The notes beneath the pieces were generated by a model. That model ran no database searches. It was not told the origin of the DNA and saw nothing but the letters and a program-made list of their open reading frames with translations. The position numbers and the translations under genes are program-made. Below, in pieces: positions 1,374 through 31,913 of a DNA stretch of 40,161 nucleotides (positions are counted from its first letter, which is position 1; the number at the start of each line of letters is the position of its first letter). The stretch is from a virus (lineage: Duplodnaviria; Caudoviricetes), in IMG/VR virus record IMGVR_UViG_3300017912_002988, positions 1 to 40,161 of that record, one strand, 5' to 3'.

Positions 1374-1402
1374 TTGCCTATATACTCTATAGGGTCTATA
1401 AT
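1374..1402 (+). promoter_or_regulatory. sigma70-type promoter
   Basis: TTGCCT (1374-1379), 17 bp spacer, TATAAT (1397-1402); predicted TSS ~1409-1410 coincides with the start of the riboswitch-like motif. Confidence 0.75.
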
Positions 1403-1419
1403 AGACCTACGTTCATCCA

Positions 1420-1620
1420 ATGATAAGCATACTGCTGGCATTAACCCTTGCCCATCATGATGACACCAACCCCTACGGGTGGCATATGTCTTGTGAAAGG
1501 TTCCTACAGAGAAGAGTTGAAATCCTTATGGATGACAACTTGGATCGACGATCTAAGTATAACCTTATTGGTTATCTTAAATCAAAGGTTGAAGGTAAAT
1601 GCGATGGTATGTTAATCTAG
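1420..1620 (+). CDS. Small hypothetical protein (66 aa), hydrophobic N-terminus, two Cys; nested in aptamer 1
   Basis: ORF track; resembles 1656..1829. Confidence 0.7.
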   Translation: MISILLALTLAHHDDTNPYGWHMSCERFLQRRVEILMDDNLDRRSKYNLIGYLKSKVEGKCDGMLI

Positions 1621-1655
1621 GACGCAAGTAAGTCGCGGAACGGAGCGTTCATCCT

Positions 1656-1829
1656 ATGATTGAGTTAGCACTATTGGCGAGTCTTAATCGGGGTCCTCAA
1701 ATGACCTGTTTACAGGTCAGAGAAGTTGCAGAGACCGTAATGGAATCCAACATGAGTGATCGCGATAAAGAAAAACTTCTATCAAAATTGTTTGGTAGAT
1801 TCATGACGCTAAAGTGTCTCAAAAACTAG
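1656..1829 (+). CDS. Small hypothetical protein (57 aa), paralog of 1420..1620; nested in aptamer 2
   Basis: Manual translation MIELALLASLNRGPQMTCLQVREVAETVMESNMSDRDKEKLLSKLFGRFMTLKCLKN; below the ORF-track cutoff. Confidence 0.7.
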   Translation: MIELALLASLNRGPQMTCLQVREVAETVMESNMSDRDKEKLLSKLFGRFMTLKCLKN

Positions 1830-1910
1830 GACGCAAACGACTGAAGGAACGGGAAAACGGATCCACCGAAAGGTGAGAAGGTTAACTTTCCATTCATTCA
1901 GGTACGACAA

Positions 1911-2075
1911 ATGAACACACTTACAATCATCAAAAAGCAAATTGAGAAAGCAGCACGTCTGCACGATGCACAAATCATGCACACTACATATCGTGGTGTC
2001 AAGTATGAGTGCAAGCAGGAAGGCGAAGAAGTGCATGGCACTTTTTGCTATCGCGGCCGCAACTACAGTAAGTGA
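1911..2075 (+). CDS. DUF4278-like YRG-motif peptide (54 aa)
   Basis: Manual translation MNTLTIIKKQIEKAARLHDAQIMHTTYRGVKYECKQEGEEVHGTFCYRGRNYSK; two YRG motifs, typical of peptides downstream of cyanobacterial glutamine riboswitches. Confidence 0.75.
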   Translation: MNTLTIIKKQIEKAARLHDAQIMHTTYRGVKYECKQEGEEVHGTFCYRGRNYSK

Positions 2076-2174: not shown

Positions 2175-2201
2175 GAGAGGGGTTGTCACCCCTCTTTTTT
2201 T
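2175..2201 (+). terminator. Rho-independent terminator
   Basis: AGAGGGGT-TGTC-ACCCCTCT followed by a T run. Confidence 0.85.
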
Positions 2202-2235
2202 GTGGTAGCATCTAAATATTATCTTTGGAGGGTGT

Positions 2236-31119: not shown

Positions 31120-31192
31120 GCTTCCTTAGCAATCTGGTGAATGCTCCGAACTCATAATTCGGTTAAGGAGAGTTCGATCCCCTCAGGAAGCA
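31120..31192 (+). tRNA. tRNA with CAT anticodon (elongator Met or Ile2)
   Basis: GCTTCCT/AGGAAGC acceptor stem, CCGAA-CTCATAA-TTCGG anticodon arm, TTCGATC T loop. Confidence 0.85.
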
Positions 31193-31197
31193 CTTAT

Positions 31198-31283
31198 GCG
31201 AGTATGGCGGAATCGGTAGACGCACCAGACTTAAAATCTGTTGACTATATAAGGTCGTGGGAGTTCAAGTCTCCCTACTCGCA
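31198..31283 (+). tRNA. tRNA-Leu(TAA)
   Basis: GCGAGTA/TACTCGC acceptor stem, CAGA-CTTAAAA-TCTG arm, long variable arm. Confidence 0.92.
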
Positions 31284-31287
31284 CCTT

Positions 31288-31359
31288 GCCCTTGTAGCTC
31301 AGTGGTAGAGCAGCGCTTTTGTAAAGCGAAGGTCATCGGTTCAAATCCGTTCGAGGGCT
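31288..31359 (+). tRNA. tRNA-Thr(TGT)
   Basis: GCCCTTG/CGAGGGC acceptor stem, CGCT-TTTGTAA-AGCG arm, GGTTCAAATCC. Confidence 0.92.
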
Positions 31360-31360
31360 T

Positions 31361-31640
31361 TCACTCTTTTGAGTGAATAGGTTGCACCATCGACATTTCG
31401 GACAGGAGTTCGATTCTCCTCGCTTCCACTCATGGGGGCGCAATGGTTTCGACGGGGTATACGGAGTGTGACTGAAACCTGCTTGGATAAGCAACCAATA
31501 GATGCAAAAACATCTGATGTCGCTGCGAACAATATCGTAGCATTCTCCCGCACTCGCGAACTCGCGACTGCCTGAATGGGAGATCGGGGTTAGACTAGCC
31601 TTGTTACCCAAGTAGTCCGTGGGGGTGTAATGCCCCCTTA
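31361..31640 (+). ncRNA. ssrA: Circularly permuted (two-piece) tmRNA, tag ANNIVAFSRTRELATA*
   Basis: T arm AGGAG-TTCGATT-CTCCT plus acceptor 3' strand CGCTTCC-A (31404-31428) precede the 5' strand GGGGGCG-CAATGGTTTCGAC (from 31434); G3:U70 pair; tag frame 31525-31575; outer boundaries approximate. Confidence 0.9.
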
Positions 31641-31652
31641 TTCAGGAGTATT

Positions 31653-31850
31653 ATGAAGATTAATCTATGGTATTCTAAGAGTATGTTGCAATGGCGATGG
31701 ACTCTTTGCGAAGAATTTAAAAACGGTGTTACATACAGAGAACAACACTCTGGTCAACAACCGATGCTTCGTGATGCCATGGATGATGTTGCGAACACTG
31801 TTGAGTATATTCTTGAAGCTAAAGAAAAGAGGGAAAACAAGGGGAATTAG
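31653..31850 (+). CDS. Hypothetical protein (65 aa); stop codon lies inside tRNA-Ala
   Basis: AGGAG RBS; ORF track. Confidence 0.7.
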   Translation: MKINLWYSKSMLQWRWTLCEEFKNGVTYREQHSGQQPMLRDAMDDVANTVEYILEAKEKRENKGN

Positions 31851-31913
31851 CTCAATTGGTAGAGCACCTGCTTTGCAAGCAGGGGGTTAGGGGTTCGAGT
31901 CCCCTATTCTCCA
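31841..31913 (+). tRNA. tRNA-Ala(TGC)
   Basis: GGGGAAT/ATTCTCC with G3:U70, CCTGC-TTTGCAA-GCAGG arm, GGTTCGAGTCC. Confidence 0.95.

Follow-up and report, generated by a model that had tools for sequence, protein, structure and literature searches.

Two small genes of a T4-like marine cyanophage are nested inside an RNA aptamer, and the ends of each gene are predicted to pair with one another in a long stem that brings start and stop codons together. As far as sequence can tell, these stems extend both P2 helices of an interlocked double aptamer of the glutamine-I (glnA) type that lies ahead of a DUF4278 gene, and in the family of the first gene, ORF1, the end pairing appears to be under selection. 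The window, by which we mean the whole stretch of 40,161 nucleotides analysed, carries this locus near its left end. Its region 1380-2200 matches 429 phage records, nearly all of them Synechococcus or Prochlorococcus phages, the best being Synechococcus phage Sf-FS3 (88.8% across the entire length). Among cultured relatives, the locus occurs in Sf-FS3, Syn9 and S-CAM1. The parts of the locus are the following.

1374-1402, plus strand: sigma-70-type promoter TTGCCT-17-TATAAT, 10 of 12 matches
1410-1414, plus strand: P1 5' strand CGTTC of the outer glutamine-aptamer core, pairing with 1847-1851
1416-1446, plus strand: 5' arm of extended P2a, TCC plus ORF1 codons 1-9
1420-1620, plus strand: ORF1, 66 aa, PHROG 6471
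1594-1622, plus strand: 3' arm of extended P2a, the last ORF1 codons and UAG stop, then GA
1623-1635, plus strand: outer junction strand CGCAAGTA (C1625 is position 23) and P3 5' strand AGTCG
1638-1650, plus strand: inner, permuted P1 hairpin GAACG-GAG-CGTTC
1652-1679, plus strand: 5' arm of extended P2b, TCCT plus ORF2 codons 1-8
1656-1829, plus strand: ORF2, 57 aa, with 15 related loci
1807-1831, plus strand: 3' arm of extended P2b, ending in the UAG stop and GA
1832-1852, plus strand: inner junction strand, P3 3' strand CGACT (1838-1842), GAAG, P1 3' strand GAACG (1847-1851) and G1852 (position 60)
1841-1903, plus strand: predicted expression platform, a TGAAG-containing strand (1841-1846) and its partner TTCAG (1898-1902)
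1911-2075, plus strand: DUF4278 (IF17-like) gene, 54 aa, PHROG 545
2175-2204, plus strand: intrinsic-terminator-like hairpin at the end of the unit

The DUF4278 domain match (E 1e-4) is slightly below the curated cut-off; according to the accessible part of PMC6212724, such a gene is the usual target of glutamine riboswitches. A free-standing HNH endonuclease gene (941-1348) is found immediately upstream of the riboswitch promoter. Downstream, a 32-codon ORF at 2070-2172 overlaps the DUF4278 stop, and its region contains an imperfect 25-nt inverted repeat (2070-2094/2118-2142). Farther along the window, 31120-31913 holds a two-piece (permuted) tmRNA of cyanobacterial type and three tRNA genes.

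The earlier note had claimed that the 5' and 3' ends of each nested ORF base-pair, and every pairing it listed was recovered in place. In ORF1, 1422-1434 pairs with 1605-1617 at 12 of 13 positions (9 Watson-Crick and 3 G-U pairs, with one A-A mismatch) and stacks with the pairing of 1416-1418 and 1620-1622; the stem also exceeds what had been described, running through 1436-1446/1594-1604. The ends of ORF2 form 5+5+5+6 = 21 pairs, 2 of them G-U. The listed pairs of both ORFs occur in the minimum free energy and centroid structures with pair probabilities of 0.71-1.0, and P1 (1410-1414/1847-1851) forms at 0.94-0.96 in a fold of 1408-1853. The AUGs of the window sit in internal loops between helices, with about 1.3-1.4 of their 3 bases paired. 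Since both long stems appear in free, nested, tandem and anti-Shine-Dalgarno (anti-SD) folds, they need no ligand.

That the stems are extended P2 helices, as had been proposed, is borne out by their flanks, which are the conserved core of the glnA aptamer. Set against the RF01739 consensus, P1 and the conserved junction CGUUCAUC...GACG.AAGUA...GAAGGAACG are present at 1410-1418, 1620-1630 and 1843-1851. The outer core has the three-way junction with P2, P3 and the E-loop strands AGUA/GAA; the inner core is without the E-loop, which is described as a defining feature of the glutamine-I aptamer (PMC5393176, accessible part). The two units are joined by P3, the AGUCG of the first pairing with the CGACU of the second, and P3 varies among 176 loci as AGUCA/UGACU and by length-matched changes. 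The long-range 23-60 pair, a glutamine-I riboswitch feature in the accessible text of PMC6212724, is present twice as a Watson-Crick pair, C1625-G1852 in the outer core and C1834-G1643 in the inner. In 13 of the 176 loci (11 distinct) the outer pair has become G-C while the inner stays C-G; the inner pair is switched in 1 locus, and one pair is broken in 4.

Rfam scans of the window gave no riboswitch match. A match to RF01739 at gathering score is absent from the window and from four gene-bearing loci (L002, L005, L045 and L335), and 3 of 3 gene-free relatives sharing this core score above the RF01739 threshold, at 35.3-43.6 bits; the gene-bearing units are missed because of the length of the insert. 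The gene-free locus L013 matches at 43.6 bits as one nested unit. A serial tandem fold was considered and rejected, given the crosswise covariation of P3 and of the 23-60 pairs and the single nested match of L013. A pseudoknotted architecture is a feature of the glutamine-II riboswitch; the glutamine-II model (Downstream-peptide, RF01704) matched nothing in the window at E <= 10.

Complementary gene ends might also arise by chance or from generic folding along the ORF (PMC5318159, accessible part), if biased codon use for an N-terminus that is hydrophobic and a C-terminus that ends in Cys happened to yield them. With the aptamer flanks fixed, three nulls of 200 controls each were generated: synonymous redraws, within-gene synonymous shuffles and codon permutations. 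The ORF2 end duplex (-18.3 kcal/mol) was equalled or bettered by 2, 2 and 1 of 200 in these nulls, and its expected end-to-end pairs by 1, 3 and 3. The ORF1 end duplex (-24.4 kcal/mol) was matched or beaten by 3 of 200 redraws and 1 of 200 codon permutations; against within-gene shuffles, 24 of 200 were as good and the difference is non-significant. Its expected end-to-end pairs were equalled or bettered by 19 redraws, 37 shuffles and 1 permutation. The comparison with synonymous controls thus favours a selected stem in ORF2 throughout, and in ORF1 against redraws alone; we read the failure of ORF1 against the shuffles as due to their often restoring the same end codons. The base of P2 closes with a probability of 0.93 in the ORF1 unit and 0.96 in the ORF2 unit of the native sequence, as compared with control medians of 0.02-0.19 and 0.00-0.01; native closure was equalled by 9 and 27 of 150 ORF1 controls in two nulls, the 27 being within-gene synonymous shuffles, and in neither null did any of 150 ORF2 controls reach it. 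Of 343 control ORFs at these loci, 60 were examined, and 7, 1 and 3 of them passed the three nulls. DUF4278-like control ORFs (60 of 83) passed in 16, 4 and 2, so that the redraw null must be regarded as lenient.

Covariation was analysed in 131 distinct homologs of ORF1 with 66 codons, 107 after removal of near-duplicates (mean identity 74%), using home-made tree-aware G-tests rather than R-scape. Part of this set was found with a pattern fixing the last Cys codon (TGY) and the stop, and part of the conservation (Ala and Cys codons, the pattern-fixed TGY) follows from the protein. Over the 23 in-register coding pairs of the window itself the summed covariation is 184, as against 0 +/- 25 in tree-simulated nulls, none of 500 reaching it; when the helix registers are slid by 1-3 positions it falls to 14-48, values reached by 19-150 of 500 nulls. 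The helix therefore covaries as a whole. The strongest covarying pairs are all complementary (1418-1620, 1443-1597, 1419-1619, 1428-1611 and 1431-1608); singly, only 1418-1620 is significant at E < 0.05 (E 0.03), the best coding-coding pair having E 0.26. A first run, with 63 and 106 sequences, gave no pair at E <= 0.5, and in a second the top four pairs were complementary and on the helix with E 0.56-1.4. RNAalifold on a gapped alignment of 33 sequences recovered the inner part of the stem only and missed the outer.

Counts of paired cells point the same way. In 36 of the 107 homologs, 76% of cells are paired in register and 35-50% in slid registers, and double-change cells number 53 against 24 +/- 6 in a shuffle control that ignores kinship; in the register of the family, 80% of cells are paired in these 36, with 65 double-change cells. 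In 41 of 43 members of the family, cognate ORF1 ends outpair swapped ones, a count uncorrected for kinship and composition. The A of the AUG lies opposite the U of the stop in 107/107 homologs, and the stop codon tracks the two bases before the AUG: UGA goes with UC in 27 of 29 and UAA with UU in 17 of 17, and UAG is mostly found with C at -2 (38/61). In most homologs the AUG lies within the helix; the window has a shifted register. In the ORF2 family of 15 loci, Sf-FS3 retains the stem and L123, L201 and L212 retain part of it, G1664-C1818 becoming A-U in L123 and L212 and G-U in L201; L202 and L209 fold otherwise.

The argument that two ORFs make the same long-range stem from different sequences, and hence that structure is selected, is thus supported by the controls, by the advantage of cognate ends and by the register-specific covariation. 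The non-significance of ORF1 against synonymous shuffles and the scarcity of significant single pairs speak for chance or generic folding. The covariation in one register largely refutes it, and it is opposed as well by the cognate-end advantage, by control ORFs that remain near the null and by two ORFs of little or no kinship closing at the same positions of the aptamer; we regard it as very improbable.

ORF1 is coding, as follows from its substitutions at the three codon positions (477:255:1045 among the 107 homologs). Its product has a hydrophobic N-terminal helix, a two-helix hairpin and two invariant Cys, and ORF2 shares this plan with a hydrophobic start and two Cys; on these features both proteins look as if they were exported. 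ORF2 has no match in Pfam or PHROG, and the ORF1 homologs have no Pfam domain and no name among the 120 listed of 730. No PDB fold matched a model of ORF1 (pLDDT 81) at E <= 0.001, and the sole match in a viral fold library is a direct homolog. A profile comparison of ORF1 with ORF2 is weak (probability 5.7%, E 0.007). The ORF2 counterpart in Sf-FS3 is annotated as a hypothetical CDS, and ORF1 is intact in that genome (L335, PV340856.1), yet without annotation there. Contigs from four RNA runs (X1, X2, X7 and X8) cover ORF1, the linker and DUF4278 of relatives; none covers the ORF2 body, and they carry no information on start, strand or level.

About 3300 viral stretches carry the 3' half of the aptamer. 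An unbiased sample of 120 viral loci contains 218 units, whose P2 span is bimodal, being <60 nt in 127 units and 141-232 nt in 91. Of the 91 long inserts, 90 are ORFs whose start adjoins the P2 base and whose end falls between -12 and +20 nt from the P2 closing purines. Among 123 cellular matches from 120 loci (for 3 of which no 5' half was found) no such nested ORF was seen; the P2 span exceeds 60 nt in 11 and reaches about 119 nt, none having an AUG at the P2 base. Dereplication of 217 usable distinct nested ORFs left 155. The 46 that stop before the core pass the three nulls at p <= 0.05 in 38, 32 and 39 cases. The 109 that read through the core, ending in ...GRK or ...DAND-type tails, do so in 23, 16 and 19, and have a median of about 8 predicted P2 extension pairs. 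The commonest family (94 of the 155) has a short P2 only, with a median z of -0.7 to -0.2, and a gene can therefore be nested without a long stem. Long start-to-stop stems characterise one class, which includes both ORFs of the window, and the larger class of core-reading ORFs manages with a short P2 around the AUG. Core-encoded C-termini of the ...DAND/DAKAD or ...GRK types are found in L002, L003, L009 and most second units, as well as in the first units of L007, L012 and L024, and the stop of the ...DAND/DAKAD-type ORFs falls inside the anti-SD strand CUGAAG/CUAAAG. A three-unit array, with a gene-bearing unit between two short ones, is seen in the 330-760 region of L115.

Transcription probably starts near 1409, one base 5' of P1, to judge from the sigma-70-type promoter. 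Its spacing is conserved, the distance from the end of a TAnnnT hexamer to P1 being 7 or 8 nt in 75 and 59 of 178 upstream sequences. ORF1 would then likely be short-leadered, with a leader of about 11 nt, which would account for its lacking a Shine-Dalgarno sequence (SD). The earlier statement that neither ORF has one is correct for ORF1 and extends to its kind (0 of 50 first-unit ORFs), and does not apply to ORF2, which has GGAG at 1642-1645, 10 nt 5' of the AUG and within the inner P1 hairpin. Among second units, the linker opens with GGAG in 35 of the 60 that bear a gene and in 0 of the 25 empty ones, kinship being uncorrected; the same SD test is passed by 6 of 27 long ORFs of the window. 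A hairpin directly 5' of P1 (1392-1408, plus strand), with the -10 hexamer TATAAT in its loop, makes the start site less certain. A hairpin just before P1, with varied arms, is found in 129 of 139 relatives, and that of the window may serve as a stem at the 5' end of transcripts that read through or are made late, or else may form in the DNA of the promoter. The T4-like late-promoter motif ATAAATA lies <=70 nt from P1 in 28 of 173 loci, 12 of which are without a sigma-70 hexamer at the usual place. Two promoter-like sites on the minus strand are within chance expectation.

It had been inferred previously that an extended P2 hides the start codon when folded and may allow reinitiation or a translation-dependent resetting of the switch. 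Reinitiation would mean that the stem juxtaposes start and stop, allowing a ribosome that terminates to begin anew on the ORF it has just read, in place of an SD. This would fit the A of the AUG facing the stop U throughout the ORF1 family and the missing SD of first-unit ORFs. However, a ribosome at the stop codon would, from its usual footprint size, cover the 3' arm of the stem, so that 1594-1622 must be single-stranded within it; stem and terminating ribosome require the same bases. In addition, the short leader would already explain the want of an SD in ORF1, ORF2 has one, and the 109 core-reading ORFs stop 12-19 nt past the stem. Reinitiation by proximity is therefore not supported, and we consider it very improbable.

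Hiding of the start regions is plausible on the folding models. When transcripts of increasing length are folded at equilibrium, it takes 4-9 kcal/mol to open the ORF1 start region until about 1605 and about 14 once 1620-1625 are transcribed; for ORF2 the cost is 7-11 kcal/mol, rising to about 15 after 1832, so that at no stage does the model show this start region as very open. Resetting by translation is likewise plausible, because the stops lie in or adjoin the aptamer core. We lean, by a small degree, towards the view that the P2 extensions are ligand-independent scaffolds which close the sensor around a gene of 170-200 nt and hide its start. Another account is that of accommodation only, the stems keeping the aptamer foldable after invasion by a gene, with ribosomes opening them freely and the fold exerting no control. 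P2 is a variable element of the aptamer, reduced to a GAAA loop in crystal constructs (PMC5393176, accessible part) and long in some cellular copies, its closure collapses in synonymous controls, the longest stems occur where the ORF stops before the core, and the AUGs of the window lie in internal loops, all of which would suit accommodation. Against it stand the position of the AUG, 9-13 nt from P1 in all 155 nested ORFs and facing the stop in the ORF1 family, the cost of about 14-15 kcal/mol for opening after folding, and the placement of an SD in a hairpin of the aptamer itself. Accommodation alone is unlikely, if worth keeping in mind.

Under the preferred scaffold reading, transcription would begin at about 1409 and the ORF1 start would be presented on a short leader without an SD. 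The starts of ORF1 and then of ORF2 would stay comparatively accessible until the last codons of each ORF exist, and ribosomes would load during this co-transcriptional period. A translated message would remain open, because each ribosome would melt P2 and, on reaching the stop, also the strand of the core next to it; without translation the message would zip shut, its nested genes silent. The pre-organised, closed sensor could then bind glutamine, whereupon the DUF4278 ribosome site would be freed, so that each mRNA would serve either as a template for small proteins or as a riboswitch.

The DUF4278 gene, at 1911, lies 3' of the aptamer with a predicted anti-SD platform. The core strand CUGAAG can pair just 5' of the DUF4278 SD, five or more of the 6 pairs being possible in 165 of 194 relatives (a count without a null control), and this platform strand is predicted to pair at the ribosome site when the aptamer is unformed. 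To open the start region of DUF4278 takes 8.1 kcal/mol when the RNA folds freely and 3.5 when P1 and P3 are enforced, a drop as expected for an ON switch of the gifB type, the gifB glutamine riboswitch being such a switch in the accessible part of PMC6212724. A ribosome at the ORF2 stop lowers the modelled cost from 8.1 to 5.2 kcal/mol; ORF2 translation may thus provide a basal coupling to DUF4278.

A reciprocal glutamine switch would go further, the ligand closing P1 and P2 so that the nested genes are off and DUF4278 on at high glutamine, and the reverse at low. The binding-core sequence and 23-60 pair are intact, the short P2 of the read-through majority could depend on ligand, and the predicted anti-SD platform would serve such a switch. 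The stems of the window, at -24 and -18 kcal/mol, are however formed in every ligand-free model, and their energies far exceed what a ligand of millimolar affinity can add (the gifB glutamine KD is about 2.3 mM; PMC6212724, accessible part). For the window we judge reciprocal control improbable; under the scaffold reading, glutamine would steer mainly DUF4278 and affect the nested genes solely by holding the closed state.

With the glutamine-I riboswitch (RF01739) of the Synechocystis gifB leader (PMC6212724; motif PMC2864571; both in their accessible parts), the phage RNA shares P1 CGUUC/GAACG, the P2 base, the junction ACG.AAGUA, P3, the GAAG strand and the 23-60 pair, as well as the downstream DUF4278 gene and the predicted release of its ribosome site. 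Unlike in the glutamine-I riboswitch, two cores here interlock through one P3, and each P2 encloses a whole gene whose codons add 20-25 pairs; the 23-60 pair is C-G here and G-C in 116 of 123 cellular copies. Phage glnA RNAs have already been reported in print. Among the tandem glnA RNAs of marine metagenomes described in PMC2864571, the available supplement contains short-P2 units with the same first- and second-unit tails; they are treated there as separate units, whereas the crossing covariation found here favours a nested fold. Nested ORFs were not found in the text and the portion of the alignment of PMC2864571 that was available, nor was an AUG beside the P2 base in those alignments, in which gaps could hide such a motif. 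The literature searched likewise contained no account of genes lying within glutamine aptamers or of the pairing of their ends; Additional files 1 and 3 of PMC2864571, which deal with the motif and its contexts, may bear on this novelty.

Type I toxin-antitoxin systems combine a toxic small membrane protein with an antisense RNA antitoxin. Their toxin mRNAs (aapA, hok; PMC6733600, accessible part) resemble the nested genes in that a small ORF is silenced by end pairing once the 3' part has been made. In the toxin mRNAs the partners are untranslated ends, activation needs 3' processing and early hairpins are added that prevent co-transcriptional translation (PMC6733600, same part); here, the partners are coding ends and the helix belongs to a metabolite aptamer. 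In the MS2 maturation gene (PMC4615214, accessible part), translation is similarly limited to the period before an inhibitory long-distance helix forms. The delay there is due to a metastable hairpin, and here, as we propose, to the length of the gene itself, in a DNA phage and a riboswitch context.

As a joint reading, to be taken as tentative and a little short of evenly balanced, we suggest that cyanophages have made riboswitch hairpins into gene cassettes, in which start and stop codons and synonymous sites are parts of the sensor, the RNA is either mRNA or sensor, and the outputs are coupled by ribosomes that terminate within the anti-SD strand. These outputs would be two small exported proteins on the one hand and a glutamine-synthetase-inhibitor-like gene on the other. 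If true, this would be a riboswitch in which the nested genes form the aptamer and also reset it. Riboswitch aptamers are usually regarded as non-coding and compact, and those described here escape standard scans; with some 3300 stretches carrying the 3' half and a long insert in 91 of 218 units, glutamine sensing by phages is likely undercounted. The stems show how a sensor tolerates an entire gene inside it and offer a natural example in which RNA structure dictates the choice of stop codon; they would also allow a direct test of ribosome traffic versus ligand binding on one RNA. The finding bears on how cyanophages may read and steer the nitrogen status of their hosts.
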